Assembly (NCBI GenBank): GCA_040755005.1
Contig: JBFMBV010000002.1
Span: 13,761 to 77,760 of the forward strand
DNA from: Bacillota bacterium
GTDB taxonomy: Bacteria > Bacillota > Sulfobacillia > JBFMBV01
Length of the DNA stretch: 64,000 nucleotides
Reading direction: 5' to 3'
The translations under genes were made by a program, and so were the position numbers. The notes below the pieces were generated by a model. It saw only the letters and a list, made by a program, of their open reading frames with translations, did no database searches and was not told the origin of the DNA. Shown here one piece after another: positions 27,158 to 57,207 of the stretch. How positions within the stretch are numbered: the stretch's first letter is position 1; each line of letters opens with the position of its first letter.

Positions 27158-27232
27158 TCCTCGATAGCTCAATGGTGGAGCACTCGGCTGTTAACCGAGG
27201 GGTTGCAGGTTCGAGTCCTGCTCGAGGAGCCA
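27158..27232 (+). tRNA. tRNA-Asn (anticodon GUU), CCA encoded
   Basis: Cloverleaf readable: acceptor TCCTCGA/TCGAGGA, D-arm GCTCAATGGTGGAGC, anticodon loop CTGTTAA (GTT), T-arm GCAGGTTCGAGTCCTGC, discriminator G + CCA. Confidence 0.85.
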
Positions 27233-27237
27233 AGCAC

Positions 27238-28574: not shown

Positions 28575-28597
28575 AGTGGCCCCCGAGGGATTGTAGT

Positions 28598-32315: not shown

Positions 32316-34237
32316 AGATCAAGTCGGTACGCATTCGTAACTTCCGCTCCGTGAGAGGGCAGCTCGTTGAGCTTGGCGACTACACATGCTTTGTGGGAGC
32401 TAATGGTTCAGGGAAGTCTAACGTGCTTCATGCTCTTAACGTTTTCTTCGGAACAGACACCCCTGGCCTCGACACCCACGAACTAGAAGAGGAGGATTTT
32501 CACAACAAGAACACAGGAGAGCCTGTAGAGATAACAGTTACGTTTTGTGACCTCTCGCCGCAAGCCAAAGAGGAACTAAAGCACTATGTGCGCCACGACC
32601 AACTGGTAGTCTCAGCTGAAGCGGGTTTTGACGCTGATACCCGCAAGGCTGCGGTCAAGCAGTATGGACGCAGGATGGTGATCAGGGAGTTTGCGCGCTT
32701 CTTTGAGGCTGAGAAGAAGACAGGCACGAAGGTCTCGGAACTCAAGGAGATATATGCGGACATACAAAAGAGATACTCACAACTGCCTGTTACAGGAACA
32801 AGGGAAGCCATGATCACGGCGCTTCGGTCATATGAGGAGAGTCACCAGGAGGAGTGTGAGGAGCTTCCGAGCAGCGACCAGTTCTATGGAGTAGCCAAAG
32901 GAACAAACCACCTCGAGAAGTACATCCAATGGGTCTATCTCCCAGCAGTCAAAGACGCATCGAGCGAACAGGCTGAAGCCAAAACCACGGCCCTCGGAAA
33001 GCTCTTGGCACGCACCGTTCGATCCAAGGTCAACTTCAAGGAGTCGATTGACGCTATCCGTGGAGAAACACGAGAAAAGTACGAAAAGCTTCTGGTCGAT
33101 AGTCAGGAGGAGCTGGCAGAAGTATCTCAAGCTCTAAGAGATCGCTTTGTGCTGTGGGCACACCAGGACGCGACTCTCCGGCTGGAATGGCAACAGGATC
33201 CTGAGAAGGCAGTACGTGTGGACGAACCATTCGCTCAAGCCATTCTCGGTGAGGCAGGCTTTGAGGGGGAACTCACCCGTTTCGGACACGGACTTCAACG
33301 GTCCTTTCTCCTGGCGCTTCTGCAAGAACTCTCCGGTAGTAACATCGAGGCGGGTCCGCGGCTGATTCTCGCGTGTGAGGAACCTGAGCTTTACCAGCAC
33401 CCCCCTCAGGCAAGGCACCTATACAACGTGCTGCTGAGACTGAGCGAACAGAACTCTCAGATTCTTATTGCGACCCATAGCCCCTACTTCGTGTCCGGTG
33501 AAGGCTTTGAGAGTGTACGAATGGTTCGCAAGTCTAACGGGGCGTCTTCGATCACGAGGGCGACACATGACGAAGTATCGAAGAGAATCGCGAAGGTTCG
33601 AGGAGAGCAGCCTATAAGGGCCAGCGGCCAACTGGCCAAGATCCATCAGGCGCTCCAGCCGGGACTTAGCGAGATGTTCTTCGCCTCCCGAGTCATATTT
33701 GTTGAAGGTCTTGAAGACATTGCCTATATAACAACATACTTACATCTCCTAGGCTTGTGGGACGAGTACAGGAGGCTCGGTTGCCACTTGATCTCGACTG
33801 GTGGGAAGAACGAAGTGCTTCTGTCCTTGGCGGCTGTGAAGTGCCTCCAGATCCCGGCTTTCGTTGTCTTCGATTCAGACGATGACAAACCGGACAAGAA
33901 CGGCAGCAAGCAGAAACATCGAAAGGACAACTCTGCAATCCTAAGTCTATGTGACGTTGACAGTCTGCAAGTGTCTCCGTCCGATACATTCTGGGGAGAC
34001 TCCGCGGTCATGTGGTCCTCTGATATTGGGCAGGTGGTTGCGCAGGAGATTGGAGCCGAGGACTGGGACAGGTATCGCTCTGAGGCTGACGCGAAGTATG
34101 GGCACGTAGGGAACCTCCGCAAGAACATGCTACACATCGCATCGAGCCTGCAAATAGCTTGGGAAGCTGGGAAAGAGTCGGACTCGCTAAGGAAGGTCTG
34201 CAACAAGATCATGGAGTTTGCTCAGAAGAATGGATAG
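32312..34237 (+). CDS. OLD-family ATP-dependent nuclease (N-terminal ABC-type ATPase + C-terminal Toprim)
   Basis: Walker A GANGSGKSN. Toprim motifs (IFVEGLEDIAYI ... FVVFDSDDD). Noticeably AT-richer than its neighbours. ATG 32312 overlaps the helicase stop; RBS GGAAGGAGG. Confidence 0.8.
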   Translation: MKIKSVRIRNFRSVRGQLVELGDYTCFVGANGSGKSNVLHALNVFFGTDTPGLDTHELEEEDFHNKNTGEPVEITVTFCDLSPQAKEELKHYVRHDQLVVSAEAGFDADTRKAAVKQYGRRMVIREFARFFEAEKKTGTKVSELKEIYADIQKRYSQLPVTGTREAMITALRSYEESHQEECEELPSSDQFYGVAKGTNHLEKYIQWVYLPAVKDASSEQAEAKTTALGKLLARTVRSKVNFKESIDAIRGETREKYEKLLVDSQEELAEVSQALRDRFVLWAHQDATLRLEWQQDPEKAVRVDEPFAQAILGEAGFEGELTRFGHGLQRSFLLALLQELSGSNIEAGPRLILACEEPELYQHPPQARHLYNVLLRLSEQNSQILIATHSPYFVSGEGFESVRMVRKSNGASSITRATHDEVSKRIAKVRGEQPIRASGQLAKIHQALQPGLSEMFFASRVIFVEGLEDIAYITTYLHLLGLWDEYRRLGCHLISTGGKNEVLLSLAAVKCLQIPAFVVFDSDDDKPDKNGSKQKHRKDNSAILSLCDVDSLQVSPSDTFWGDSAVMWSSDIGQVVAQEIGAEDWDRYRSEADAKYGHVGNLRKNMLHIASSLQIAWEAGKESDSLRKVCNKIMEFAQKNG

Positions 34238-37166
34238 CAGCAGCACTATCGGTTGGTGTCCGCGTTTGATCGAGGTGGCACTCCCCATCCGTGAAATCTC
34301 GGCAGAGAGCGTGCGGGACAAATCGCTGCGGCACGGCCATATCTCCACGCTTCACCTCTGGTGGGCGCGTCGACCGCTGGCTGCGTCACGAGCGGTTGTG
34401 TTCGCGTCGCTCGTGCCCGATCCCGACGACCCGCGTTGTCCGGCCGACTTCAGGGCAGCGGTGGAGCGTCATCTCAAGACGCACGTGCCGGCGGAACTGA
34501 GATACTACCTTCGCGGCCGCCACAGTCACCGTGATGAGGACCCGTACCGGCCCTACGATGGCATGCCGGACACGCTGCGGAACCGCCTCCTCATGTTCAT
34601 CGCCAAGTGGTCGCCGGAGTCCCTGACGTTTGAGGCCGGCAAGCGGAAGAACGCGCCCGTGCCGAAAGAGCTCCTGGACGACCGCTCCCTCGTGAAATGG
34701 GAGACCTCCGATCCTGAGAACGCCCAAGGCCAGGAGATCCTCCGCATCGCCCGCCAGCTTGTGAAGGCCGCCCACAGGGGCGACGTCCCGAGGGTGCTCG
34801 ATCCCTTTGCCGGCGGCGGGGCGATTCCGCTGGAGGCCGGGAGGCTCGGCTGTCAGGCCATTGCCAACGACTACAACCCGGTCGCGTATCTCATCCTTAG
34901 GGCGACCTGCGAGTTTCCGCAGAGGTACGGTAAGCCAGGCAAGAGGACGGTGGTCGTGGAGGAGTTTGGCAAGAAGGCCGAACGCGAAATCCAGGTTCAA
35001 AACGTCCTCGTCCACGACTTCGCACAGTGGGCGAACTGGATTCTCGAGCGGGCTCGCCAGAGGATTGGGCATCTGTATCCTCCCGGCATGGACGGCAGGC
35101 CGGTTGTGGGCTACCTCTGGGCCCGCACTGCGCCGTGCTCGAACCCCACCTGCCGTGGCGAGATTCCCCTGTTACGGAGCCTTCTGGTCTGCAACAAGAA
35201 GGGGAAGCAAGTCGCGCTGACGATGGATGTGGACAGCAAGCGGAAGACGGTTCGATTCGGGATCGCGGAAGGCAACGCCATCAGGATGACTGACGGCACC
35301 ATGCAGAGTCGCGGAAACGTTTTGTGCCCGTACTGCGGACAGGTGACCCCTGTCGCCGACCTACGGACCGCTGGACGCGCGGGCCGCATGAGCGAGCAGA
35401 TGGTATGTGTCGTGGTGGAAGGAAAGGGTGGAAAGGACTACCGGGAGGTGGAGTACACAGACCTCACGGGGATTGCCTGCGCAGCGAAGATCGAGGTTGA
35501 GTGTCCCGGGGAGAGAATTCCTGAGAACCAGTGGAATGTGAAGACCTGGCTGTATGGAATGAAGACCTGGGGTTCCCTCTTCAACCCCCGCCAGCTCGTG
35601 GCCATGCAGACGTTTGTCTCCTGTCTCCACGAGGCGCTAGGAGGGATGAAGAGAGAGATCGCCGACGACGAGTACCGGAAGGCGGTTGGAGTCTGTCTGG
35701 GGCTTTGGCTGAACCGGATTGCCCAGCGAAGTTCGAATGTAGGAATTTGGGACACAACCCGAGAGACCTTTGCTCATCCCTTTGGCCGCCAGGCTATCCC
35801 TATGACGTGGGACTATCCCGAGGCGAACCCTTTTTCAGAGACAACAGGGGGTGCGGAAGGCGGACTGGACTGGATGAAGCGGGTGATCCTGCATGAGTCA
35901 GGGAATTCCCTACCTGCCTACGTGACACGCAGTGATGGCGCGGCCCTTCCCTTCAGGGAAGCATCTTGCGACTTGGTCGTCACCGATCCACCCTATTTTG
36001 ACGCCATCGCTTACGGTGACCTCTCCGATTACTTCTACGTTTGGCTCAAGCGCGGCCTTGGCGATGTCATCCCTGAGGCCCTGATCACGCCGCTCACGCC
36101 CAAGGCTGATGAGGCGACTGCACTCAAGCATCGTCATTCCGGCGACGGAGAGAAGGCGGATGCTCACTTCAAGTCAAAGTTGGCGGCGGTACTAGCGGAG
36201 GCACACCGGATCTTAAGGCCTGATGGCATCGTCTCGATCATGTTTGCACACCAGTCCACAGAGGCGTGGACGGCCCTGGTTTCGGCGATCTTCGAGGCTG
36301 GGTTGACGGTGCACGCGACGTGGCCGATTGACACGGAGCTCACTACGGCCTTGAAGGCCAGCATGTCGGCTCTGTCGTCGTCGGTAACCGTTACCTGCCG
36401 TCCGCGCGCTGTAGCAGGTGCTATATCCTCCAAGGCGGTCCGCAGTGAGATCGAGGAGGTAGTGGGCCGTTCCGTAAAGCGCTTCTGGTCCTACGGCTTT
36501 CGCGGCGCAGACCTCATCGTTGCGTGCTATGGACCCGCTGTGGGGGTCTTTGGGAAATACGAGCGAGTGGAGAAGGCAGATGGCACCCCTGTCGGCATCC
36601 CCGAACTCCTGGTGCTTGCCAAGCAGGCCGCCCGTGACGCGATCGCCGGGGATTTCCGCGGAGACAACTTCTCAACCCTCTACTACGTCTGGGCGAACCT
36701 CTACGGGGCGGCGGAGCAGGCTTGGGATGACGCCCGGCTGGTCGTGCAGATCGGAGGAGACGAGGACAACGCCATGGAGGTTGCCCGCGGGCATGGGATC
36801 TTTGTGGTGGACGGTCCGAAATGCCGCCTTGCGCTCCTAGAGGACCGCGCCAATCGCCGAGGACTTGGCATGGATCAGAACCCGCCACACATTGACGCGC
36901 TACATCGCAGCATGCTCCTCTGGAAGAAGGAAAAGCGTAAGGATCTAGTCGAGTATCTCCGTGAGCGCGACCTCTTGGAGGATGGCCCGTTCTGGAAGCT
37001 GGCGCAGGCCCTGTTCGAGGTCCTTCCCCGCGATCTGGAGGACTGGAAGCTGGTCAGCGCTTTGCTCGGCGAGCGCCAGACTTTGCGTACGGAGGGCAAG
37101 CGTAGCGCGTACAGGGATGAGCAACAGGAGCTGTCCTTCGACGAGGGAGGCGGTGAGCGAACATGA
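34230..37166 (+). CDS. DUF1156-type DNA methyltransferase (N6-adenine/N4-cytosine class, DPPY motif)
   Basis: DUF1156-like N-terminus (RLIEVALPIREISAESVRDKSLRHGHISTLHLWWARRP). SAM motif I VLDPFAGGGAIPLEA. Catalytic motif IV DLVVTDPPY. ATG 34230 overlaps the OLD stop (ATGGATAG). Confidence 0.75.
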   Translation: MDSSSTIGWCPRLIEVALPIREISAESVRDKSLRHGHISTLHLWWARRPLAASRAVVFASLVPDPDDPRCPADFRAAVERHLKTHVPAELRYYLRGRHSHRDEDPYRPYDGMPDTLRNRLLMFIAKWSPESLTFEAGKRKNAPVPKELLDDRSLVKWETSDPENAQGQEILRIARQLVKAAHRGDVPRVLDPFAGGGAIPLEAGRLGCQAIANDYNPVAYLILRATCEFPQRYGKPGKRTVVVEEFGKKAEREIQVQNVLVHDFAQWANWILERARQRIGHLYPPGMDGRPVVGYLWARTAPCSNPTCRGEIPLLRSLLVCNKKGKQVALTMDVDSKRKTVRFGIAEGNAIRMTDGTMQSRGNVLCPYCGQVTPVADLRTAGRAGRMSEQMVCVVVEGKGGKDYREVEYTDLTGIACAAKIEVECPGERIPENQWNVKTWLYGMKTWGSLFNPRQLVAMQTFVSCLHEALGGMKREIADDEYRKAVGVCLGLWLNRIAQRSSNVGIWDTTRETFAHPFGRQAIPMTWDYPEANPFSETTGGAEGGLDWMKRVILHESGNSLPAYVTRSDGAALPFREASCDLVVTDPPYFDAIAYGDLSDYFYVWLKRGLGDVIPEALITPLTPKADEATALKHRHSGDGEKADAHFKSKLAAVLAEAHRILRPDGIVSIMFAHQSTEAWTALVSAIFEAGLTVHATWPIDTELTTALKASMSALSSSVTVTCRPRAVAGAISSKAVRSEIEEVVGRSVKRFWSYGFRGADLIVACYGPAVGVFGKYERVEKADGTPVGIPELLVLAKQAARDAIAGDFRGDNFSTLYYVWANLYGAAEQAWDDARLVVQIGGDEDNAMEVARGHGIFVVDGPKCRLALLEDRANRRGLGMDQNPPHIDALHRSMLLWKKEKRKDLVEYLRERDLLEDGPFWKLAQALFEVLPRDLEDWKLVSALLGERQTLRTEGKRSAYRDEQQELSFDEGGGERT

Positions 37167-40000
37167 GTGACACTCTCAAACCCTGGTATGCAGTTGCGAC
37201 ACCTCACGAGGACATCCGCGAAGGACGGCTCGCAGAGGCCATCTTTGCGGCAAACGTCTGGGCGGTCGTCCAGGGTACGGCGCCCGAGATCTACCTCGAC
37301 CCTGAGGAGTTTTTCCGTAAGACCTACCTCACCACCGGACTAACCACGGTGCTGAACCGCGTTGCGGGCGCGCTCCGACGCAACGGCGAGGTTGGAGACC
37401 GCATCATCAGCCTCCAGACAGCCTTCGGCGGTGGGAAGACGCACACGCTGGTGGCCCTGTGGCATCTAGCGAAGTATGCCGACCGCTTGGCGGGCTCGCC
37501 TCACTCAGATGCCCTTCGGAGAGCCATCGGCGGCCGATTCCCGGAGAAGGTGAAGGGCGTCGCCGTCTTCACCAACCAGACCTGCGATGCGACCCAGGGA
37601 CGTAGGGTCGCAGATGGCGTTCACCTGCGCACGTTGTGGGGAGAGTTAGCCTACCAGCTCGGCGGGAAGGAGCTCTACGAACGCGTCCGTGCCAATGACG
37701 AAAGCCAGCGCGTGCCTCAAGGGCTCTTCTTCGAGATCCTGCAGGCCGCCGCACCCTGCCTGATCTTGCTGGACGAGCTTGCCGACTACTGCGTTGGCGC
37801 GGCGGCAGTGCCGGTAGGTGACACGAGCCTGGCAGACCAGACCGTGTCCTTCATCCAGCAGCTGACCGAGTCCGTCCAGCAGGTGCCGGGCGTAGTGGTG
37901 GTCGCCACCCTGCCGGCGAGCAAGCACGAGGTCGCCCAAAGCGAGAAGGGCCAGGAGGCCTTCGTGACACTGGAGAAGCGCTTCCAGCGTCTCGGAGCCG
38001 ACGTCAAGCCGGTGGCGGATGTGGAAATCTACGAGGTTGTCCGGGCCCGCCTCTTCGAATCCATCGCACCGGACACTGCTCCGGACTATCCTAAGAAGGT
38101 TGCCCAGGCGTACCAGAGTATGTACGCGGCGCACTCGGGTGAGGTACCCCCCGAGGCCGCCAAAAACACGTACCGCGAGCAGCTCGAGCGCGCCTATCCG
38201 TTCCATCCCCTGCTCATCGACGCACTCTACACGCGCTGGGGCAGCCACCCCGATTTCCAACGGACGCGGGGTGTATTGCGCCTGCTGGCGAGCATCGTAG
38301 GCGACCTTTGGAAGCGCCGGCAGGGAAGCACCGAGACCCAACACCTGATTCAGCCGTGCCATGTCCGCTGGTCTGTCGATGCGCTGCAGGCTGCGCTCAC
38401 ACGACTCTGGGGACCCGCCTATCAATCCGTTGCTGCTGCCGACGTCATCGGGGAGCGGTCCAATGCCGGCATCTTCGACGAAGAACGTGGTGGCGACTAC
38501 CGAAGCGAGTCCATCGGCAAGGGGCTGGGGTCTGCGATCATCCTCGGCTCATTCGGCGGCCAAGGTGGCCGCAGCGGGTTCAGCGCTAGAGATCTGAAGC
38601 TGGCATGCTCCCGGCAGGGTTTAAACTGGAGTTACACGGACGGGGCTCTGCTGGAGCTGGAGAACCGCTGTTTCTACCTCCACACGGTGACGTCCGGAAG
38701 CCTCGGCAAGCGCTACTGGTACGGCACAAAACCGACCCTCAACAAGCTGGTCGTCCAGTACCGTCAGCAGAGCGCCAAGGAGGACTTCGGCGAGGAGATA
38801 CTGGAGGACCTCCGGGCTGATTCCCAGAAGAGCCCCATGGCTGGTGCGACGTGGCGGGTGGTCGTCAACCCCGCAGAAGACCTGCCAGAGCAGAAGTCTC
38901 TCACGCTACTGATCCTTCCGCCGTCCCTGGCCTGGGACGAGAACGGCGGGGCGAAGGACGTGGTCCAGGCACGCGTACAGGCGATCAGCACCAGGTGCGG
39001 CGGAAGGGACCGCCTGTATCGGAACACGCTCCTGTTTCTGGTTGGGACCACTCGCGGGCTCACTAAGCTGCGGCAGGCCTATCGGGAGCAGGCAGCGCTG
39101 GAAGGCGTGCGTGCGGACTACTGGGAACAGCTCGATGAGGAGCAGCGCGAGGAGCTCAAAAAACGACTGGATGCGGCGCGCAAAGCCGCCCTGGAAGCGC
39201 TGGGCCCCGCCTACACCGTTGCCCTCCGAGTGCGCGGGCAAGAAGTAGAGCCATGCGTGCTCTCGGACGCGCGGCGAACCTTCCCAGAACACCTTGGTTA
39301 TGTGTGGACGACGCTCGTCGAGGACGAGGAGTGGATTCTCCGTCGTGTTGGGTCGGTGACGCTGGAGAGCACGGGCCTCATCCCGAAGGAAGGCGGCCTT
39401 CGCTTGAAGGATGCCGTCGAGGCCTTCCTGCGCTTCACGGACAAGCCCATGGTCGCGACCAAGGAGGCGGTGACCACCGGGCTCGCCCAGGCTTGCCTGG
39501 ACGGACTGGTTGGCATCGGCAGAGGTGGAAGCCTGTCGACACTCCTGACCCGCCATTGCAGGCAGTCGGTGTCGCTCGACCCCAACGAAGACGGTGTGTG
39601 GATCATCCCTCCGTTCACACCGGAGCCGACGATGGTTCCTGGGGCTGAGGGAACCGCCGGAGTTGGGATCAATGTCGGGGGACCGGGCGGCCCAGGTGGA
39701 ACAGGCTCCAGCACGGGCAGTGGGGAAGGTGCGGCAACGACCGCCACGGGTAAGCCGGGAATCGAGGGCACGGTGCGTCGGTTCGTCGTCCGCGGCGAGG
39801 TTCCCGTGGAGAGCTGGGGTGAGCTCTTTCGCTGCTTCGTTGGGCCTGCTGCACGGATGAACCTGAAGAAGTTGCAGCTCGGCGTGCAGTTCGAGATGGT
39901 GCTCCCTGAGGAGCGGGTGCTGAGCGAGACCGATCACACGCTCAAGACGATCAAAGAGGCCGCCCGCCAGCTGGGGCTCACCTTCGAGGTGGGGGAGTAA
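37163..40000 (+). CDS. DUF499-family ATPase (BrxC/PglY-like) of a BREX-related, methylation-associated defence system
   Basis: Walker A LQTAFGGGKTHTL and Walker B LILLDELADY in a DUF499-like context; about 945 aa; ATGA overlap with the methyltransferase stop; RBS GAGGGAGG. Confidence 0.75.
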   Translation: MSDTLKPWYAVATPHEDIREGRLAEAIFAANVWAVVQGTAPEIYLDPEEFFRKTYLTTGLTTVLNRVAGALRRNGEVGDRIISLQTAFGGGKTHTLVALWHLAKYADRLAGSPHSDALRRAIGGRFPEKVKGVAVFTNQTCDATQGRRVADGVHLRTLWGELAYQLGGKELYERVRANDESQRVPQGLFFEILQAAAPCLILLDELADYCVGAAAVPVGDTSLADQTVSFIQQLTESVQQVPGVVVVATLPASKHEVAQSEKGQEAFVTLEKRFQRLGADVKPVADVEIYEVVRARLFESIAPDTAPDYPKKVAQAYQSMYAAHSGEVPPEAAKNTYREQLERAYPFHPLLIDALYTRWGSHPDFQRTRGVLRLLASIVGDLWKRRQGSTETQHLIQPCHVRWSVDALQAALTRLWGPAYQSVAAADVIGERSNAGIFDEERGGDYRSESIGKGLGSAIILGSFGGQGGRSGFSARDLKLACSRQGLNWSYTDGALLELENRCFYLHTVTSGSLGKRYWYGTKPTLNKLVVQYRQQSAKEDFGEEILEDLRADSQKSPMAGATWRVVVNPAEDLPEQKSLTLLILPPSLAWDENGGAKDVVQARVQAISTRCGGRDRLYRNTLLFLVGTTRGLTKLRQAYREQAALEGVRADYWEQLDEEQREELKKRLDAARKAALEALGPAYTVALRVRGQEVEPCVLSDARRTFPEHLGYVWTTLVEDEEWILRRVGSVTLESTGLIPKEGGLRLKDAVEAFLRFTDKPMVATKEAVTTGLAQACLDGLVGIGRGGSLSTLLTRHCRQSVSLDPNEDGVWIIPPFTPEPTMVPGAEGTAGVGINVGGPGGPGGTGSSTGSGEGAATTATGKPGIEGTVRRFVVRGEVPVESWGELFRCFVGPAARMNLKKLQLGVQFEMVLPEERVLSETDHTLKTIKEAARQLGLTFEVGE

Positions 40001-40252
40001 TCGGCTCCTAATCCGGAGCACCACCGCCTTACTGCTGCAGCACAGCTATGCCTCAGCACCTCGGGCAGCGCCACGGCCTGCGGGAGAAGCCAAGTATCGT
40101 ACCCTAAGGATGTACGGCTGGCATCTGAAGAAGCGCTAACACTGGCGGGTTGGGTCGATTCCCAACCGACTCTAGGGGGTCACATGCAGCCCGGCGATAA
40201 GGGCAAGAACCGTCACGTCTGGTCAGGCGGTTGCTGAACGGAAGGGGATAGT

Positions 40253-43200
40253 ATGGCGCAGCAAACCAGACCACGCGTCACCCAGCGGGCGTACTCACTC
40301 CGGTTGCGGGGGACCACACCGGGCGACACATCATGGCGGGATGCGCTCTGGCAGACCCATGAGGCTGTCAACAAAGGTGCCAAGGCATTCGGTGATTGGC
40401 TGCTTACTTTGCGTGGCGGCCTGGATCACACACTTGCGGCCGCCAAGACCGACGGAGAACGCCGCCAACGACGCATTCTCTTGGCTCTGTCATGGCTGTC
40501 GGTGGAATCAAAACGCGGAGCTCCGGATGACTTCATTATCAGGCACGGCGGACACGACCGAGGTAAAGCTGTAACCGGGGCACTTGAGGAAATCCTAGTG
40601 CGTCGGGGTGTGGACCAGAGTGAGCTAGCTGAGTGGAAGCGCGACTGCTCCCCGTCCTTGCACGCAGCTATTCGCGAGGATGCCGTTTGGGTGAATCGGA
40701 GCAGGGCATTTGATGGTGCGGTCAACTCAATAGGTTGCTCACTCACGCGCGAGGAGGCGTGGGACATGCTGGAACGCTTCTTCGGAAGCCGTGAAGCCTA
40801 TCTGGCTCCAGCGAAAGGGTCCGAAGATGAGTCTTCCGACACAGGGCAAGAGGAGAAAGCAAAGGACCTCGTCCAGAAGGCAGGGCAATGGCTCAGCAGC
40901 CGGTTCGGCACCGGCAAAGGAGCGGACTTCTCCCGCATGGCCGAGGTCTATCAAGAGATCGCGAGTTGGGCTGGCGCACACTCACCGGACAAGCCGGGCA
41001 CGCATGCCATTGCCAGCCTTGCGACCGCCCTCAGCGAGTTCACTCCTGCATCAGACAACCTACAGGGCGTGCTTGGTCTGATCAGCGGTCCAGGATACAA
41101 GAGCGCGACGCGCAATCTTCTCACTCAGATCGCCGCCAAGACCACCGTTACTCAACAAGATTTTACGAAACTGAACGCAACGGCGACCGCGGATAAAGGA
41201 AAATGCATGACGAACACCGGATCGAAGGGGCAACGAGCATACTCCGACACCATCCTCAAGGACGTGGAGTCGGCTTGTGGGTTCACCTACCTGCAGGACG
41301 GAGGGCCTGCTAGACACCCGGAGTTTGCAGTCATGCTTGACCACGCAGCTCGCCGCGTTTCCTTGGCCCACACGTGGATCAAGCGGGCTGAGGCGGAACG
41401 TCGCCGGTTTGAGGAAGAAGCGAAGCGTATGGCCAATGTCCCATCTCCTGCTAGGGAGTGGCTGGACTCGTTCTGCTCGGAACGTTCGGGAACGTCAGGT
41501 GCTTTGGAACCCTACCGTATCCGGCGGCGGGCGGTGGACGGGTGGAAGGAAGTGGTCACCGCATGGAGTAGGAGTTCATGTAGTACCGGCGCCGACCGGA
41601 TCGCCGCCGCTCGGGCGTTGCAGGACGCTCCAGAGATCGACAAGTTCGGCGACATTCAGCTATTCGAGGCCCTCGCTGAAGACGACGCCGTGTGCGTTTG
41701 GCACAAGGATGGCGATGCCGCGAAACCTCCCGACCTTCAGCCGCTGCTTGACTACGTTTTTGGCGCTGAAGCGGAGTTCAAGAAACGGCACTTCAAGGTG
41801 CCGGCGTACCGCCACCCCGATGCGCTTTTGCATCCGATCTTCTGCGATTTTGGGAAGTCCCGCTGGGACATCTGCTTCGACGTCCAGAAGAACGTGCAAA
41901 CGCCCTTTCCGCGGGCGCTTTGCCTGACGCTTTGGACCGGGAGCGGGATGGTAGCAGTTCGGTTGTGCTGGCAGTCCAAGAGGCTTGCATGTGATTTGGC
42001 CCTTGGAAACAACGCGAGGAATGCAGGTGCTTCCGCGGTCACCCGCGCGGACAGATTGGGACGAGCTGCCTCAAATGTGACAAAGAATGATGAGGTAAAT
42101 ATCGCGGGGCTCTTTGAACAAGCAGACTGGAATGGCCGGTTGCAGGCTCCAAGACAGCAGTTGGAAGCCATCGCCGCACGTGTGGCCAAACACGGCTGGG
42201 ATGATAAGGCCGTACAGATGCAATATCGTATCCAATGGTTGGTGTCTTTCTCTGCCAAGCTTCAACCGCAGGGCCCGTGGCTCACCTATGGAATGGCAAA
42301 TAACCTGAAGCTAGACCAGAAGAACGGTGATATTGTTATCGCGCCGCCTAACACCAAGAATGAATGGCGTGGGCTGGCTTACCCGTTCTGGCATCCTGAT
42401 AATCAGGAAGGCCGTAAGGGATTGGCCAAGCACTGCCTCTCCCGTTTGCCCGGTCTTCGCGTGCTTTCTGTCGACCTTGGTCACCGTTATGCTGCGGCGT
42501 GCGCGGTGTGGGAAGCGGTAAACACCGAGCAGATCAAGGTAGCGTGCCAGGCCGCCGGACATGATGAGCCGAAGGAGAGCGATCTCTACCTGCATCTCAA
42601 GAGAAAGGCGACGAAGCAGAAGAGGGGCGAAAACGTCGAGGTCGAGAGAACCACTATCTATCGCCGCATCGGCGCGGACACATTGCCGGACGGTACGCAG
42701 CATCCCGCCTCGTGGGCGCGCCTGGACCGCCAGTTCCTCATCAGGCTCCAGGGCGAGGAAAAGGGAGCTCGCGCGGCATTAAACGAGGAGATATGGGCGG
42801 TTCATCAACTGGAGGCTGAACTGGGCAGGACCGTGCCAATTATCGACCGACTGGTCAGATGGGGTCAGTCCGGCAAGCAAGAAACGAGACTCGATGCGCT
42901 ACGTAATCTGGGGTGGGCACCGGCAAACGAGGTTCAAGGCTCTGACGAGATGGACGAAGGCGAAGTCCGTAAGCCATCGCGCTCCGTTGACGAACTGATG
43001 TCCTCCGCCGTCCGGACCATGCGCCTCGCGCTCAAGCGCCATGGCGACCGGGCGCGAATCGCCTTTGCCATGACGGCAGCCTATAAACCTTTGCCCGGCG
43101 ACCGCAGATACTACTTCACCGAGGCGAGAGATGCTTCGGCGAACGAAGATGCTAATGCGCGGAACGGTACGCATATCGAGTCTATCCAAGATGCTCTGCT

Positions 43201-44659
43201 CCTCTGGTATGGATTGGCATCCTCCCGTGGATGGCGGGACGACGCGGCAAAGCGACTGTGGGATGACCATATCACCGGATTGTCCGGATACAAGGCTCCG
43301 GAAGAAATCGGTGAGGATGTCTCCGGTGTAGCGCGCAAGACGAAGCAAAGAGAGAATCGAGAGAAACTCCATCATGTGGCGGAGGCCCTGGTCAAGGATG
43401 CAAGGCTTCGAGAGGCTCTCCACGACGCCTGGAAGAAGCGATGGGAAGCGGACGACGAGCGGTGCAAAAGACAGCTTCGCTGGTTCAAGGACTGGATTCT
43501 TCCCCGCGGCAAAGCCGCGAGTGATCCGACCATCCGCAAGGTCGGCGGACTCTCCCTTCGCCGGCTTGCCACGCTGACCGAGTTTCGCCGCAAAGTTCAA
43601 GTGGGATTTTTCACCCGCCTTCAACCGGATGGCATAAGGGCTGAAGCCAAAGAGCAGTTCGGGCAGAGCGCCTTGGACGCTCTGGAACATCTACGCGAGC
43701 AGCGCGTCAAGCAACTTGCCAGTCGCATAGCCGAGGCGGCGCTCGGTATCGGACGGATGAGGCGGCCCATGGGAGGCAAGGACCCCAAACGGCCAAGTGT
43801 CCGTGTAGACGCGCCTTGCCACGCCATCGTCATCGAAGACCTTACCCACTACCGGCCGGAGGAAACTCGTACCCGGCGGGAAAACCGCCAACTCATGACG
43901 TGGTCGTCCTCGAAGGTCAAGACGTACCTGGCCGAAGCCTGCCAACTCCACGGCCTGCACCTCCGCGAAGTCTCGGCGAGCTACACGTCGCGCCAGGACT
44001 CCCGCACAGGAGCTCCCGGCATCCGCTGTCAGGATGTGCCTGTCAATGAGTTCATGCGGTTGCCGTTCTGGAGGAAGCAGGTTAAGCAAGCGGAGGCGAA
44101 GCAGGCCGAGAACAAGGGCGACGCGCGTGAGCGGCTCCTCTGTGACCTGAACTCAATGTGGAAAGACAAGGCTGTAGCCGATTGGCAGAAGGCCGGGGTT
44201 ATCCGTGTTCCACTAAGAGGAGGCGAGATATTTGTTTCGGCCAGCCGGGACTCCCAGGGAGTGAAGAGCCTTCAAGCCGACCTGAACGCCGCTGCCAACA
44301 TCGGCCTGCGGGGGCTTACTGACCCGGACTGGCCGGGAAAGTGGTGGTACGTGCCATGCGAGCCGGCCAGCTTCAAGCCCACACCTGATAAGGTAAAAGG
44401 TAGTGCCGCGATCAACCTGGACATGCCACTCAAAGACGCATCGGTCGGCAGCGGGGACGTAACCAGGAAGAAAGCCGGGAAGGCCAAGTCACAGTCCAAA
44501 GAGGTTGTTAACCTCTGGCGAGATGTCTCATCACGGGTGATTTCTGCGGAGGGCGTGGCGTGGGAAGTCTATTCCGCCTATCAGAATCAAGTGCAGGCGC
44601 GAGTGGTCGATATCCTGCACAGATCCGCGTGCTCAAACAATGACCGGGAGAAACAATAG
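40253..44659 (+). CDS. cas12b: Cas12b (C2c1) type V-B effector nuclease, unusually long (1468 aa)
   Basis: N-terminus alignable by eye to AacCas12b (RAYSLRLRG..SWRDALWQTHEAVNKGAKAFGDWLLTLRGG). RuvC-I VLSVDLGHRYAAACAV; RuvC-II IVIEDLTHY...YTSRQDSRTGAPGIRC; RuvC-III QADLNAAANIGLRGL. Followed by cas4/1, cas2 and an array. Confidence 0.85.
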   Translation: MAQQTRPRVTQRAYSLRLRGTTPGDTSWRDALWQTHEAVNKGAKAFGDWLLTLRGGLDHTLAAAKTDGERRQRRILLALSWLSVESKRGAPDDFIIRHGGHDRGKAVTGALEEILVRRGVDQSELAEWKRDCSPSLHAAIREDAVWVNRSRAFDGAVNSIGCSLTREEAWDMLERFFGSREAYLAPAKGSEDESSDTGQEEKAKDLVQKAGQWLSSRFGTGKGADFSRMAEVYQEIASWAGAHSPDKPGTHAIASLATALSEFTPASDNLQGVLGLISGPGYKSATRNLLTQIAAKTTVTQQDFTKLNATATADKGKCMTNTGSKGQRAYSDTILKDVESACGFTYLQDGGPARHPEFAVMLDHAARRVSLAHTWIKRAEAERRRFEEEAKRMANVPSPAREWLDSFCSERSGTSGALEPYRIRRRAVDGWKEVVTAWSRSSCSTGADRIAAARALQDAPEIDKFGDIQLFEALAEDDAVCVWHKDGDAAKPPDLQPLLDYVFGAEAEFKKRHFKVPAYRHPDALLHPIFCDFGKSRWDICFDVQKNVQTPFPRALCLTLWTGSGMVAVRLCWQSKRLACDLALGNNARNAGASAVTRADRLGRAASNVTKNDEVNIAGLFEQADWNGRLQAPRQQLEAIAARVAKHGWDDKAVQMQYRIQWLVSFSAKLQPQGPWLTYGMANNLKLDQKNGDIVIAPPNTKNEWRGLAYPFWHPDNQEGRKGLAKHCLSRLPGLRVLSVDLGHRYAAACAVWEAVNTEQIKVACQAAGHDEPKESDLYLHLKRKATKQKRGENVEVERTTIYRRIGADTLPDGTQHPASWARLDRQFLIRLQGEEKGARAALNEEIWAVHQLEAELGRTVPIIDRLVRWGQSGKQETRLDALRNLGWAPANEVQGSDEMDEGEVRKPSRSVDELMSSAVRTMRLALKRHGDRARIAFAMTAAYKPLPGDRRYYFTEARDASANEDANARNGTHIESIQDALLLWYGLASSRGWRDDAAKRLWDDHITGLSGYKAPEEIGEDVSGVARKTKQRENREKLHHVAEALVKDARLREALHDAWKKRWEADDERCKRQLRWFKDWILPRGKAASDPTIRKVGGLSLRRLATLTEFRRKVQVGFFTRLQPDGIRAEAKEQFGQSALDALEHLREQRVKQLASRIAEAALGIGRMRRPMGGKDPKRPSVRVDAPCHAIVIEDLTHYRPEETRTRRENRQLMTWSSSKVKTYLAEACQLHGLHLREVSASYTSRQDSRTGAPGIRCQDVPVNEFMRLPFWRKQVKQAEAKQAENKGDARERLLCDLNSMWKDKAVADWQKAGVIRVPLRGGEIFVSASRDSQGVKSLQADLNAAANIGLRGLTDPDWPGKWWYVPCEPASFKPTPDKVKGSAAINLDMPLKDASVGSGDVTRKKAGKAKSQSKEVVNLWRDVSSRVISAEGVAWEVYSAYQNQVQARVVDILHRSACSNNDREKQ

Positions 44660-44689
44660 TGATGACCACTCCGTGGCCGGGAGCCTGCT

Positions 44690-46408
44690 ATGGATGAGAG
44701 CCTTTGGCCAGCCCGGAATGTGGCCGAACATGCATATTGCCCGCGGCTCTTCTATTACATGCAGGTCGAGGGTGTCTTTGTTCCGAGCAGCGACACGGAA
44801 AAGGGGGTCGCTGTCCATCGACGCGTGGACAAGCCCAGCGCAGCTCAGGGGAAGGCGGATGAAAGCGAGGCGGACCCCGATCGGCCGAAAACAGTTCGGA
44901 GTCTGGCCTTAACAAGTGAGTCGCTCGGTCTAACCGCGACGTTGGACTTGGCGGAGATCTCGGGTCAAGTCGCAGTGCCCGTCGAATATCGCAAAGGTCG
45001 TCCCAAGCGCGTTTCATTGGATCCGCCTCCCGACGATCCGGGCGAAGCAGAGGAAGCTCCACTTTCGCACACAGAAGCGTGGCCCACGGACCGTGTTCAA
45101 GTGGGCCTCCAAGCCATTCTTCTTGAGGGTGCCGGGTATACGGTTAGTGAAGCGGTCATCTACTACGCCGAGGAGAAACATCGTTTCAGGATTCCCGTCG
45201 ATGATGCTCTCAAGGTCGAAGCGCTGAGGACCTTGGAAAGCGCGAAACAATGCGCCGAAGGCTCACGGCCTCTCCCGCTGCTCAATGATCCGCGCTGTCC
45301 GCGGTGTTCGCTTCAGCCGATATGCTTGCCGGACGAGGTCAATCACCAGCGGGCACAATCTTCAAGTGACGAACGTACACCGAGAAAGATCTGGCCGCCG
45401 CGCGATGACGGTATTCATGTAGTAGCCCAGCAGGATGGCGTGAAGGTCGGCGTTCGTGGCATGGAGTTGAAGGTCACGGACAAAAGTGGCGCAGTAGTCA
45501 AAACCATGCCGCTCGCCAACCTCGAAAGCCTTTCCCTGCTTGGTTCGGTGCAAATCACCACCCAGGCGATTCGTGCCCTTGCCGACATGAACACTCCTAT
45601 CGCGTTTCTTTCGCCGGCGGGACGGCTAGTGGCCATGATCGATCCGCTCGATTCAGTCAGCGCCGAGGTTCGAAGGTCACAGGTTCGTAAACTCGACCGC
45701 ATGGAGGTCTGCCTCGAACTTGCACGTGCCCTCGTGTCGGCCAAGATCATGAACCAGAGAACACTCCTCCTCCGCAATCACAGCTCGTTGCCACCTGGCG
45801 TAGCTGCTGATCTGGTGAAGGAGGCTCAGAATGCGGCGCAGTCGGATTCGGTAGATTCGGTGCGCGGGCATGAGGGTCAGGCGGCGGCCATCTACTTCGG
45901 GCATTTTGCTGGAATGTTCAAGGGCCCTCTATCGTTGGAGTTTGATGCCAATGGCAGGAAACGCAGACCTCCGCCCGACCCCATCAACTCCTGTCTGTCG
46001 CTTGCGTACTCGATGTTGACTCACGAGTGCGTGGCGGCGTTACGCCTCGCAAGACTGGAGCCATCTATCGGCGGATTTCATGTATCGAAGCCAGGGCGTC
46101 CCGCGCTCGCGCTCGATCTCATGGAACCGTTTCGACCCCTGATCGCGGATTCCGTCGCGATCACATGCTTTAACCGGGGTGAGTTGACCGAGGGACATTT
46201 TCTTCGCACTGCCTCCGGCTGTTCGCTCACCGACGCTGGCAGAAGGGGCTTCTTCCATGCTCTTGGCAGAAGAATGGATACTGAGGTCACCCATCCGGTC
46301 TTCGAGTATCGTTTGAGCTACCGGCGCATGATCGTCTTGCACGCGCGGATGATTGCGGCCTGGCTCACGGGAGATATTCCTTCTCTGGCGTTCCTGAACA
46401 CACGCTGA
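44690..46408 (+). CDS. cas4-cas1: Cas4-Cas1 fusion protein
   Basis: Cas4 part: EHAYCPRLFYY plus C-terminal Cys cluster (CPRCSLQPIC). Cas1 part: conserved blocks (LSLLGSVQITTQAIRAL; RRPPPDPINSCLSLAYSML; DLMEPFRPLIADS). Confidence 0.9.
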   Translation: MDESLWPARNVAEHAYCPRLFYYMQVEGVFVPSSDTEKGVAVHRRVDKPSAAQGKADESEADPDRPKTVRSLALTSESLGLTATLDLAEISGQVAVPVEYRKGRPKRVSLDPPPDDPGEAEEAPLSHTEAWPTDRVQVGLQAILLEGAGYTVSEAVIYYAEEKHRFRIPVDDALKVEALRTLESAKQCAEGSRPLPLLNDPRCPRCSLQPICLPDEVNHQRAQSSSDERTPRKIWPPRDDGIHVVAQQDGVKVGVRGMELKVTDKSGAVVKTMPLANLESLSLLGSVQITTQAIRALADMNTPIAFLSPAGRLVAMIDPLDSVSAEVRRSQVRKLDRMEVCLELARALVSAKIMNQRTLLLRNHSSLPPGVAADLVKEAQNAAQSDSVDSVRGHEGQAAAIYFGHFAGMFKGPLSLEFDANGRKRRPPPDPINSCLSLAYSMLTHECVAALRLARLEPSIGGFHVSKPGRPALALDLMEPFRPLIADSVAITCFNRGELTEGHFLRTASGCSLTDAGRRGFFHALGRRMDTEVTHPVFEYRLSYRRMIVLHARMIAAWLTGDIPSLAFLNTR

Positions 46409-46424
46409 CTTGCCGGAGGCTATT

Positions 46425-46715
46425 ATGCGTCGATGCTACCTGGTTTGTTACGACATCAGAGAACCGAAACGATTGCGGCGTGTCCACAAGGTGCTTAAAG
46501 GGTACGGCGAAGCCTGGCAGTTTTCCGTCTTCTTTTGTGTGCTCAAAGACATTGACCGCGTGCGGTTGCAGACCGATCTCGAGGAGCAGATGAACCAGAA
46601 GGTAGATCAGGCCATGATTCTGGACCTTGGCCCTAACGAGAAGGAGGCCCGCGAAGCGGCCACGGTTATAGGCCAACCCCTTCCCGGCCAGGACAGCGGG
46701 ATCGTTGTTGTTTGA
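46425..46715 (+). CDS. cas2: Cas2
   Basis: About 97 aa, MRRCYLVCYDI.. N-terminus typical of Cas2; the track begins the ORF at TTG 46410. Confidence 0.85.
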   Translation: MRRCYLVCYDIREPKRLRRVHKVLKGYGEAWQFSVFFCVLKDIDRVRLQTDLEEQMNQKVDQAMILDLGPNEKEAREAATVIGQPLPGQDSGIVVV

Positions 46716-46811
46716 CTTTCGGGGTGCCAGAAGGTATGATTTCCCTGAGGCCTCTACAGGAGGCGAGAGTACCACGGCACGTGTCTTCCCCTTCAATGGG
46801 CTTGGCACCGT

Positions 46812-46836
46812 GGAGTCGATCAGTTTTGTTCCGACG
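46812..46836 (+). ncRNA. Candidate tracrRNA anti-repeat within the cas2-array leader (transcript bounds unknown)
   Basis: GGAGTCGATCAGTTTTGTTCCGACG matches the reverse complement of the repeat (CCGTCGATCAGATCCGTTTCGATG) at 17/25 positions, including a perfect 9-mer GTCGATCAG. Followed by a T-run. Adjacent CAATGGGCTTGGCACCGTGG loosely resembles the Aac tracrRNA segment CCAATGGCCACTTTCCAGGTGGCA. Confidence 0.3.
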
Positions 46837-47033
46837 AAGGAGCGGACTCCTCGACAGCAGCCGCGAGCGCGGAGGTGGTGCAGGGGGGGCCAGGGGGTGC
46901 TCGAACCTGTTGGGTTTCCTGAGGCTATGAACAGCGCTCAGACCACCTGCGTAGGCTCATTGTCGGCAGCACTCGGTCACGCTCGCATGGCAGCCAGCAA
47001 ACGCTGTGTTAGCAAGGGTTTGCAGGGACGGCG

Positions 47034-48701
47034 GCCACCGACATCGAAACGGATCTGATCGACGGACACACCGACCGCCGCGGTGCCGGCTCTACGGACC
47101 TAGGCCACCGACATCGAAACGGATCTGATCGACGGACACCTGCAGGGGGAGAGTTCACGATGCAGTTCCTCCGCCACCGACATCGAAACGGATCTGATCG
47201 ACGGACACAGGGCCAGGTCGCCCAGTACATCAGACGTTTTACGCCACCGACATCGAAACGGATCTGATCGACGGACACGCCGCGCAATTCCACCAGGTAC
47301 ACCTCTTCCAACACGCCACCGACATCGAAACGGATCTGATCGACGGACACGTTGCGAGCGGCCGAATGAAAACCATGTCGTCCACGCCACCGACATCGAA
47401 ACGGATCTGATCGACGGACACCGTCACCCCCCCTACACCGCGAATGTCACATCCCAGCCACCGACATCGAAACGGATCTGATCGACGGACACGAGTAGGA
47501 CCCCCCGGGGCGAGACGTAGGTTAGGCCACCGACATCGAAACGGATCTGATCGACGGACACCTCCCCCAACAGTCTGCAAAAAAAACGCGCTGTGCACGG
47601 CCACCGACATCGAAACGGATCTGATCGACGGACACTATCAAGCTCGCCATAGGTGACTGTGAGACACTAGCCACCGACATCGAAACGGATCTGATCGACG
47701 GACACCGCAGGAGGCGGGCTGCGCGCAGGCTGTTCGCGGCAGCCACCGACATCGAAACGGATCTGATCGACGGACACTGGTATGTGATACCATTAGAAGC
47801 GCAGCATACAAAGCCACCGACATCGAAACGGATCTGATCGACGGACACTCACGCCCCTGTCCCGCGCAGGTCACACCCATAGGCCACCGACATCGAAACG
47901 GATCTGATCGACGGACACCCACGCCCCAGGCCAAGCGCGCGGCGATCCTCAGGCCACCGACATCGAAACGGATCTGATCGACGGACACCGCAAACCCTCC
48001 TCCACCAACTCCAGGCTTCTTGGCCACCGCCATCGAAACGGATCTGATCGACGGACACTTACTGCGGTGGTCAGGGCCGCGAGACTGCCCACTGCCACCG
48101 ACATCGAAACGGATCTGATCGACGGACACTCTTATGGTCTCGTCAGCAGGTACGTCCCAAGCCGCCACCGACATCGAAACGGATCTGATCGACGGACACA
48201 TGCAGTGGTGCTTGAGGGCCAGCTTGACCTGTTGCCACCGACATCGAAACGGATCTGATCGACGGACACTTGATTGTGACCTCAAGGTAGCGCGGGCCCT
48301 CCTCCGGCCACCGACATCGAAAAGGGATCTGATCGACGGACACATCTTTACCGACCCGCCCTACGGGCACAACAGCAAGCCACCGACATCGAAACGGATC
48401 TGATCGACGGACACAGCTACTCAGGCAACGCCTTCCGCGGCCACCTGCGCGCCACCGACATCGAAACGGATCTGATCGACGGACACACACGGGGTGTGTT
48501 CAGGTGGGCTGGTGTAGTCGGCGCCACCGACATCGAAACGGATCTGATCGACGGACACTTGACTGTGACCTCAAGGTAGCGCGGGCCCTCCTCCGGCCAC
48601 CGACATCGAAACGGATCTGATCGACGGACACCATCGGTGCCAGCACGAAGCGGCGTACGTCTACTGCCACCGACATCGAAACGGATCTGATCGACGGACA
48701 C
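47034..48701 (+). CRISPR. CRISPR array, 24 repeats of 36 nt (GCCACCGACATCGAAACGGATCTGATCGACGGACAC), 23 spacers of 34-37 nt
   Basis: Regular ~70-nt periodicity read directly. Repeat ends in ...GACAC like the V-B repeat 3' handle, implying + strand transcription with the leader at the cas2 side. Repeats 15 (48033, A>C) and 19 (48307, 37 nt) are variant. Confidence 0.95.
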
Positions 48702-48924
48702 TCAGGTTGTCGTCAGGATGATGGACTGCGTCGCCGGACCTCTCTACCGGCTGACAGGAGAACACATGCCTGCGCCCCGCACCCTTGTCTACCAAAGCCG
48801 GCTTCCCACAAGCGAGATCGAGCAGGTGCCCCTCCTGTTCTGTGTGGTGCGCATCATTTGGGCCCGGAAGCTGTAAGCTGAGAGACAGCATGAGCTAAGG
48901 GCAATCCCACATAACGCAATCCGG

Positions 48925-48952
48925 AAGCCGCCTCGTGGCGAGGCGGCTTTTG
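48925..48952 (+). terminator. Rho-independent terminator downstream of the CRISPR array
   Basis: AAGCCGCCTCG-TGGCG-AGGCGGCTT followed by TTTTGCC. Confidence 0.5.
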
Positions 48953-49074
48953 CCGTGTGCGTTCTTCCTACATTGCCCTCCTCCGCGCCCAAGCCCAGCT
49001 AAAGGACTTGTTGTCCCCATGGTGGAATGTCTGGCATAATGGTTGCTTTACATACTGGGCAGGAGGTGGTGGCT

Positions 49075-56673: not shown

Positions 56674-57207
56674 GTGGCCCGCTGGCGGCGGGGGCTGTGG
56701 GCTGCGGTGAAAGGTCCACGGGTGCTGGAGCTCGGGTGCGGGACGGGGGCGAATGTGCCGCACTGGGGGGCCGGCCTGCGGGTCACGGCGCTCGACCGTT
56801 CCCCCCATATGCTCGAACACGCCCAGCGCAAGGCTGCAGGCCTGGCTCGGCCAGCGGAGTTCGTCCAGGCCTGTGCCGAGTCCCTCCCCTTTGAGGCTGC
56901 GCAGTTCGACGACGTCGTGACCACCTTCGTCCTCTGCTCGGTGCAAGGCCCTGCGGCCATGCTGAGCGAGATCCACCGTGTGCTTAGGGCGGGCGGCACC
57001 CTGCACATGCTGGAGCATTTGCGGTCACGGGGCAGGGCGGGCAGGGTGATGGACTGCATCGCTGGCCCCCTCTACCAGCTTACCGGGGACCACATCGCCC
57101 GCGACCCCGCGCCGTTGCTGGCGCAGGCTGGGTTCTCCCACTCCGGGACTGCGCAGTTCCCCCTGCTCCTGGACATCGTGCGCATCATCCGCGCCACCAA
57201 GCGCTAG
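56674..57207 (+). CDS. Class I SAM-dependent methyltransferase (UbiE/Methyltransf_11-like); true start uncertain
   Basis: SAM motif I VLELGCGTGAN; acidic motif after it. Protein-like sequence (RCYDRFISTLDRLGVARWRR) continues upstream of the GTG to a stop at 56599-56601 without a canonical start codon. Confidence 0.6.
   Translation: MARWRRGLWAAVKGPRVLELGCGTGANVPHWGAGLRVTALDRSPHMLEHAQRKAAGLARPAEFVQACAESLPFEAAQFDDVVTTFVLCSVQGPAAMLSEIHRVLRAGGTLHMLEHLRSRGRAGRVMDCIAGPLYQLTGDHIARDPAPLLAQAGFSHSGTAQFPLLLDIVRIIRATKR

Follow-up and report, generated by a model that had tools for sequence, protein, structure and literature searches.

A type V-B CRISPR-Cas locus with a large ChCas12b-like effector beside a BREX-related Hma operon in a Bacillota genome

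The locus described here lies on contig JBFMBV010000002.1 of a bacterium of the phylum Bacillota (assembly GCA_040755005.1), within a stretch of 64,000 nucleotides (positions 13,761 to 77,760 of the forward strand) that was analysed as a whole and is called the window throughout; all positions refer to it unless another locus is named. [quoted passage not shown] A preliminary description made from the nucleotide sequence had listed these components, and every one of them was found again on the plus strand where it had been placed; its assignment to a complete, co-oriented type V-B locus proved correct with models of NCBIfam, Pfam and PADLOC. Absent from that description was a gene for the trans-activating CRISPR RNA (tracrRNA) between cas2 and the array. 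The gene identities and intact motifs, the homology and covariation of the tracrRNA and the regularity of the array are read directly from the DNA. Very probably the locus constitutes a type V-B system of the large ChCas12b-like clade, complete and to all appearances functional, that travels as a mobile cassette, and its position next to a Hma operon reflects the clustering of defence systems in an island.

The product of the cas12b open reading frame (ORF) reaches 1178.5 bits against the NCBIfam equivalog NF033949 (cutoff 150) and matches the PADLOC Cas12b models with E = 2.5e-291, and Pfam detects the C2c1 RuvC-like domain in it. It does not type as anything other than Cas12b, which is the call of two typing libraries. 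Like other V-B effectors it has a single tripartite RuvC domain with an intact D/E/D triad and no HNH domain; the RuvC motifs noticed earlier contain the catalytic residues D741, E1195 and D1343, equivalent to D767, E1220 and D1364 of ChCas12b. This protein from Candidatus Hydrogenedentes (1496 aa, PDB 9KLN-9KLQ) represents the closest solved structure (1765 bits for the match to 9kln) and shares 61% global identity with the effector of the window. Residues of the helical-Ib domain that contact the protospacer adjacent motif (PAM) are kept as well, namely G221, P280, G281 and K283, which correspond to G230, P289, G290 and K292 of ChCas12b. Both residue sets have been shown to be essential in ChCas12b, whose clade is distinguished by longer Cas12b proteins, a single guide RNA (sgRNA) of distinct topology and a 5'-TTN PAM (PMC12204704). 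An identical protein is deposited in GenBank as MEW6307573.1 ([quoted passage not shown], MAG standing for metagenome-assembled genome) and is encoded on a 113-kb contig.

The product of the fused gene matches NF049935 (cas4g_cas1g) over the full length with a score of 632 bits, the cutoff being 560, and both parts, Cas4 and Cas1, are recognised by Pfam; together with the Cas2 models this confirms the fusion and the Cas2 named in the preliminary description and gives the adaptation module typical of V-B, a cas4-cas1 fusion accompanied by cas2. The array, also described before with its 24 repeats of 36 nt, has the consensus repeat GCCACCGACATCGAAACGGATCTGATCGACGGACAC (36 nt) and 23 spacers of 33-38 nt, a regularity far beyond chance. 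Identical sequence is found in 22 of the 24 repeats, including the last one, the exceptions being R15, with a single mismatch, and R19 (48307-48343), a variant of 37 nt. No further repeat copies occur elsewhere in the window, and no other cas genes were found near the array in the window. The 3' half of the repeat, CTGATCGACGGACAC, is kept in 11 loci and is complementary to the tracrRNA; the 5' half is variable. Since the conserved half is complementary to a plus-strand tracrRNA and the gap between cas2 and the array is constant, transcription of the array can be placed on the strand of the cas genes. It thus has the form known from V-B arrays, co-oriented with the cas genes and with repeats of ~36-37 nt whose 3' part is the handle of the CRISPR RNA (crRNA). 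The linkage of the array with the cas genes, assumed from the beginning, is borne out in this way by repeat, anti-repeat and leader evidence alike.

The interval of 318 nt between cas2 and the array, previously taken for the leader, does exist but is not a leader only, as it holds the tracrRNA gene (46749-46823, plus strand) and a promoter-like site. In an alignment this gene follows the 75-nt tracrRNA portion of the validated sgRNA of ChCas12b position for position; the sequence of that sgRNA was rebuilt from primer sequences in the Methods of PMC12204704. For a structure test with the published topology, the tracrRNA of each of 12 loci was joined to the final 17 nt of the repeat from the same locus. 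Standard pairs were found in 96.5% of the cells, and changes on both sides occurred in 12 of 29 pairs; not one of 500 shuffles equalled the observed values, and pairing fell to 26-44% when the partners were slid by 1 to 3 columns. Of the two duplexes between repeat and anti-repeat, that of 5 bp pairs completely and that of 10 bp to 89.9% across these loci, with covariation from A-U in ChCas12b (repeat ...AUCAACG) to G-C in the window (...AUCGACG). A tracrRNA with an anti-repeat complementary to the repeat, as it belongs to a V-B system, is therefore present. A covariance model of the 75-nt tracrRNA has a single match in the 64-kb window (101 bits, E 3.6e-23) and one match per locus in 15 related loci, among them distant loci of Planctomycetota outside the set from which the model was built. 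In these last relatives the tracrRNA lies directly after cas12b (L016 14436-14508, L017 2413-2485, L019 14693-14765), and in L019 cas2 and cas4/cas1 are on the opposite strand, so the same parts occur there in an alternative arrangement. No Rfam family was detected in 39.9-49.1 kb at E values up to 1, and there is no curated Rfam family for the tracrRNA of the window.

The best promoter-like site in 39.9-49.1 kb is TTGACT-17 nt-TATGAT, which agrees with 10 of 12 consensus positions; its TGAC and TAT-AT blocks stand in the same place in 13 aligned loci. As a putative promoter this sigma-70-like site would start transcription about where the sgRNA begins. The predicted sgRNA consists of 46749-46823 fused to ATCTGATCGACGGACAC and the guide. 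In the ~210 nt from the tracrRNA core to the first repeat (alignment A1, columns 136-360) the blocks CGCGAGCGCGGAGGTGGTG, GCTCGAAC, ATGCTCGCATGG and AAACGCTGTGCCAGCAAGG are conserved across phyla; these blocks at 46824-47033 could belong to a longer natural tracrRNA, to a terminator or to integration signals of the leader.

Expression, PAM, cleavage and adaptation at this locus are deduced by homology to ChCas12b, and the following course of events is proposed. The genes cas12b, cas4-cas1 and cas2 would form a single operon, and the promoter overlapping the stop codon of cas2 would give rise to the tracrRNA, with the array downstream on the same strand. The two anti-repeat segments of the tracrRNA would pair with the conserved 3' part of the repeat (CUGAUCGAC and GGACAC), and tracrRNA and crRNA, the latter composed of the 3' repeat handle and then the spacer, would constitute a dual guide RNA that is loaded into Cas12b. 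The effector is predicted to read a 5'-TTN PAM and to cut both DNA strands with its one RuvC site (D741, E1195, D1343). New spacers would be inserted by Cas4-Cas1 and Cas2 at the leader-proximal end of the array.

Table 1. Features of the type V-B locus and of its surroundings in the window
Feature	Position	Strand	Remarks
cas12b	40253..44659	+	1468 aa; NF033949, PADLOC Cas12b and PDB 9kln match
cas4-cas1 fusion	44690..46408	+	572 aa; NF049935; Pfam Cas4 and Cas1
cas2	46410..46715	+	101 aa; Pfam PF09827, TIGR01573, PADLOC Cas2g
Predicted sigma-70-like promoter of the tracrRNA	46712..46740	+	TTGACT-17 nt-TATGAT; overlaps cas2 stop codon
tracrRNA core	46749..46823	+	75 nt; three stems and two anti-repeat segments (GTGTC, GTCGATCAG)
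Putative leader or tracrRNA 3' extension	46824..47033	+	blocks conserved across phyla (alignment A1)
CRISPR array	47034..48701	+	24 repeats, 23 spacers
Swappable V-B cassette	~40199..48716	.	delimited by where homology to near-identical Hma islands ends and resumes
hmaA	28647..32315	+	SNF2 helicase with C-terminal NOV_C/DUF3883 nuclease-like domain; PADLOC HmaA 2.2e-188; Pfam SNF2, Helicase_C, NOV_C
OLD-family ABC ATPase-TOPRIM gene between hmaA and hmaB	32267..34237	+	Pfam AAA_15, OLD-like_TOPRIM; PADLOC Old, AriA, GajA
hmaB	34218..37166	+	DUF1156 N6-adenine DNA methyltransferase; PADLOC HmaB 4.3e-139; Pfam DUF1156
hmaC	37163..40000	+	DUF499 ATPase; PADLOC HmaC 9.2e-132; Pfam DUF499
DUF488 gene upstream of the Hma operon	27544-28275		PDC-M19A
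tRNA-Asn	27158..27232	+	ARAGORN; left edge of lower-GC island

Among the species representatives of GTDB 21 related V-B loci were found. Their hosts comprise Syntrophobacter, Thermoleophilia, Dehalococcoidia, Synergistota, Hydrogenedentota, Thermodesulfobacteriota, Nitrospira and MAGs of Planctomycetota, and this taxonomic spread speaks for horizontal movement. The order cas12b, cas4/1, cas2, gap (~320 nt) and array is shared by 12 related loci spread over many phyla, in which cas2 and the array are separated by 315-343 nt. Cas4-Cas1 is 82-95% identical to its orthologues in most of the related loci and 65-74% identical in the most distant ones. In the closer loci, with hosts of different phyla, Cas4/Cas1 and Cas2 are 82-97% identical and Cas12b 55-84%, which means that either evolution is much faster in the effector or each module is exchanged on its own. 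Five related loci (L005, L009, L010, L014 and L021) share a conserved block of ~100 nt (GAACATGTCGAA ... GGGAAGAGCTGGCATGTTTGATCACTGAATC) located ~100 nt 5' of cas12b (alignment A3, columns 280-410), which may be a promoter or another regulatory element of the cassette; this block was not found in the window.

The system that resembles the locus of the window most is that of ChCas12b from Candidatus Hydrogenedentes bacterium ADurb.Bin170 (PMC12204704), the source locus of which was recovered as L020 (ORF 4316-8806, 1496 aa). Both possess a large Cas12b (1468 aa here), the RuvC triad and the PAM residues of helical-Ib, the fold of the 75-nt tracrRNA with three stems and two repeat:anti-repeat duplexes, a repeat with the 3' end CUGAUC[G/A]ACGGACAC, the same gene order and a gap of ~320-330 nt between cas2 and the array. 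In contrast, 39% of the aligned residues of the effectors differ, the protein of the window has a 21-aa insertion at residues 691-711 and deletions of 19, 11 and 7 aa, the 5' half of the repeat is different, and the host is here a Bacillota MAG with 65% GC. Moreover, the ChCas12b system was studied by experiment whereas the locus of the window is known from its sequence alone. More remote are the canonical V-B effectors AacCas12b and BthCas12b (PDB 5U30, 5WQE, 5WTI), which belong to the same subtype and share the architecture of RuvC and Nuc, the need for a tracrRNA, repeats that end in GCAC/ACAC and the cas4-cas1 fusion with cas2. However, only the RuvC region can be aligned with them by sequence (~75-90 bits), the protein of the window is ~340 aa longer, and the sgRNA topology of the ChCas12b-like clade differs from theirs (PMC12204704).

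The spacers give little information about the targets of the system. In a search of all 23 spacers (blastn-short) against the array-masked window and the 21 related loci only chance matches of 12-16 nt were obtained, and concatenated spacers produced in phage and plasmid collections only matches with E ~0.3, none of them credible. Six exact-pattern scans of IMG/VR and one of metagenome contigs were carried out. The only spacer with a match in IMG/VR was S19, and for five other spacers nothing was found in IMG/VR or in the metagenome collection. Spacer S19 (48344-48378) agrees with UViG_3300036828_000780 (IMG/VR; L022 513-547) in 31 of its 35 positions, the PAM-proximal 23 agreeing without exception, and TTC is found immediately 5' of the match. 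Translated (..IFTDPPYG..), the spacer yields the catalytic DPPY motif of a DNA methyltransferase; hmaB of the window itself is not matched. The match is in line with a TTN PAM and with a crRNA from the plus strand, if only weakly because the sequence encodes a conserved protein motif. Two spacers of 37 nt each, S18 (48270-48306) and S22 (48559-48595), differ by one base only (T/C at position 5) and have different neighbours. This suggests two acquisitions from variant copies of a protospacer and not the duplication of a block. The variant repeat R19, the only one of 37 nt, follows S18 directly.

Upstream of the V-B locus, behind a gap of about 250 nt (40001-40252) that had already been pointed out, lies another operon. 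By its gene content it is a Hma system in the sense of PADLOC or a Type-1 BREX-related (BR) system, with all the genes by which this system is recognised. Operons with DUF499, DUF1156 and SNF2 proteins (Hma) were treated as BREX-related Type-1 BR systems in a comparative study of 2026, in which insertions of OLD-ABC/TOPRIM genes were described as recurrent "backup effectors" (PMC12839542); HmaA has been tested experimentally (PMC11232893). The operon of the window fits this picture well, since its helicase-nuclease, methyltransferase and ATPase match the Hma models strongly and its OLD-ABC/TOPRIM insertion follows the described theme; nothing notable sets it apart.

The preliminary description called this operon BREX-like, which is fair as a loose label, and brought it into connection with the methylation-associated defence system (MADS), which does not hold because the best PADLOC hits are HmaA, HmaB and HmaC (1e-132 to 1e-188). 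MADS was considered as a candidate and rejected. Only partial matches to mad2 (5.4e-11, methyltransferase motif) and mad3 (5.5e-18, ATPase) were obtained, and no other mad model matched any of the seven upstream proteins scanned (23119-40000); as MADS is an operon of eight genes, an operon of 4-5 genes with best hits to HmaA/HmaB/HmaC cannot be assigned to it. Canonical BREX, which combines a PglZ phosphatase with a BrxC ATPase and a PglX methyltransferase (plus BrxA/B/L or BrxH), was rejected likewise because PglZ is missing from the proteins of the operon; PglX scored weakly (1.6e-7), and BrxH-like hits ranked below HmaA. The statement that MADS cooperates with CRISPR was accurate but concerns another system, namely the synergy of MADS with type I-E CRISPR-Cas in Pseudomonas aeruginosa SMC4386 (bioRxiv 10.1101/2023.03.30.534895). 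Common to MADS (mad1-8) and the situation in the window is a methylation-based innate system that resides together with CRISPR-Cas in a defence hotspot. They differ in that MADS has eight genes including a kinase and a specificity subunit, in the CRISPR type (I-E there, V-B here), and in that its synergy was shown by experiment whereas the pairing in the window is known from the adjacency of the genes alone.

How far this adjacency is conserved can be seen from both sides. About a dozen related V-B loci have readable sequence 5' of cas12b, and Hma-type genes are found there in only one of them, in a MAG of Nitrospira sp. (L021), as fragments. At L021 2-2010 there are a C-terminal part of HmaA, which has no tblastn match to HmaA of the window, and a 246-aa fragment of HmaB, both apparently decayed. 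In the other loci the upstream neighbours of cas12b are mutually unrelated (DNA polymerase III delta subunit, CobQ, a GH108 lysozyme-like protein, a PLD protein, an integrase, an S13 peptidase and a BrxH-like helicase), and the intergenic region between hmaC and cas12b has no homology to the upstream regions of other V-B loci. From the side of Hma, 79 metagenomic HmaC loci were surveyed (31-90% identity, most of them >60%), of which ~33 have at least 2 kb 3' of hmaC. The probes were Cas1, Cas2, Cas12b and type I-E proteins together with an array finder based on exact 18-mers. No cas genes or array were detected 3' of hmaC in any of these ~33 loci.

The exact HmaC of the window had no record on contigs, and members of its cluster were used instead to find closely similar islands. 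It is precisely 3' of hmaC that near-identical Hma operons (91-98% nucleotide identity, from three sequencing runs) diverge. One of them (L023) shares homology with the window as far as 40198, beyond which it has a type I-E cas operon (L023 13037 onward); another (L024) is homologous up to the stop codon of hmaC (40000) and then carries a gene for a SIR2_2 protein of 926 aa (L024 10848-14427), after which homology returns ~16 nt past the last repeat (~48717, by eye) and at 48862-49019 (blastn). From these breakpoints it follows that the V-B locus is a discrete cassette in a variable slot, and the comparison of island boundaries proposed in the preliminary description thus bounds the cassette at ~40199-48716. 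A second variable slot is located between hmaA and hmaB. It is occupied by the OLD ABC-ATPase/TOPRIM gene in the window (32267-34237), in L024 and in L025, and by genes for SIR2_2 and a DUF87 (FtsK-like) ATPase instead of OLD in L023 (3337-7075). Short stretches on either side of the SIR2 gene in L024 show 74-79% identity to window sequences that lie 8 kb and 13 kb from the slot (14238-14457 with 56854-57076, and 10894-11082 with 26777-26972); fragments of paralogous genes or relics of a rearrangement at the hotspot may explain them. The whole island of ~27-49 kb, in which a DUF488 gene is followed by the Hma operon and then by the V-B locus, has a GC content of 0.54-0.65 compared with 0.65-0.73 in its flanks. 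An attR-like repeat of the 3' end of tRNA-Asn was not found at the right edge of the island, and there is no integrase among the ORFs scanned.

For the vicinity of the two systems a functional explanation has to be considered, according to which Hma would degrade unmethylated invader DNA with the fragments feeding Cas4-Cas1-Cas2, or a synergy like that of MADS and type I-E would exist, and selection would keep the adjacency. The short gap, the shared strand and the lack of a predicted intrinsic terminator between hmaC and cas12b, by which read-through is possible, are compatible with such a coupling, as are the presence of CRISPR-Cas in the same slot of two of three near-identical Hma islands (V-B in the window, type I-E in L023), the Hma remnants 5' of the Nitrospira locus and the published case of a methylation-based system acting in synergy with CRISPR (bioRxiv 10.1101/2023.03.30.534895). 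Against it stand the related V-B loci with upstream sequence, where the adjacency is otherwise absent, the HmaC loci with their downstream regions free of cas genes and arrays, the SIR2 gene that fills the same slot in L024, the hmaC-cas12b intergenic region that is not conserved with other V-B loci and the fragmentary state of the Hma genes in L021; we regard a coupling of this kind as unlikely. As synergy of defence systems does not need adjacency, the latter is weak evidence either way. Quite unlikely, too, appears the related proposal that the 3' flank of Hma is a preferred docking site of CRISPR-Cas which reflects functional coupling. It draws on the V-B system here, on type I-E in an island of 94-98% identity and on the one spacer that may target a phage DNA-methyltransferase gene. 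If it were true, products of the Hma helicase-nuclease would feed adaptation by Cas4-Cas1-Cas2, or the two systems would provide layered protection against phages that escape by methylation. The conservation of the neighbourhood, with L021 as the single related case, 0 of ~33 HmaC loci and a varying cargo of the slot, lends no support to the earlier idea that the juxtaposition signifies cooperation, and clustering in a defence island, not a dedicated partnership, very probably accounts for it.

As to the V-B locus itself, it might have been acquired horizontally and then have lost interference or adaptation, so that only a silent or decaying remnant is left. No spacer has a perfect known target and two internal repeats (R15, R19) carry mutations, as such a remnant would show, but missing spacer matches are usual in uncultured lineages, none of the three ORFs is truncated and each matches its model from end to end, the residues for catalysis and PAM contact are preserved, 22 of 24 repeats including the last are identical, and every paired position of the tracrRNA is kept. 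Decay is thus considered very unlikely. That the array is part of a different system, or is transcribed from the minus strand, and so has no connection with the cas genes, is exceedingly improbable. No point in support of it was found, and it is opposed by the complementarity, with covariation, of the repeat 3' half and the plus-strand tracrRNA, by the spacing of 315-343 nt in 12 related loci, by the window being devoid of other cas genes near the array and by the restriction of the repeat to this place in the window. The preferred reading, a complete and apparently functional V-B cassette within a defence island, has to bear some opposing points as well. For the 22 spacers other than S19, neither the phage and plasmid collections nor the window itself offered a credible target, nor did IMG/VR for those scanned in it, and as the sole partial protospacer lies in a DPPY motif, its match and the TTC flank may reflect conservation at the protein level. 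The effector has K535 in place of N564 of ChCas12b; S565, the residue of the OBD next to N564, is dispensable in ChCas12b (PMC12204704). Finally, the probes of the HmaC survey could have missed unusual cas loci.

The locus is an ordinary, uncharacterised addition to a type V-B clade that was structurally characterised only recently, and it adjoins a known BREX-related system. No new biological question arises from it, as the type of the system, its RNA components and the neighbouring system have all been described already and the GenBank name of the effector is already Cas12b. The near-identical islands illustrate clearly, on a small scale, how cassettes are exchanged in a defence hotspot; one slot contains V-B CRISPR, type I-E CRISPR or SIR2 and the other OLD or SIR2 with DUF87. 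With this locus one more intact large Cas12b of the ChCas12b type becomes available together with its tracrRNA, repeat and predicted PAM, and it could serve comparative work and, because ChCas12b is a candidate for genome editing, also engineering.

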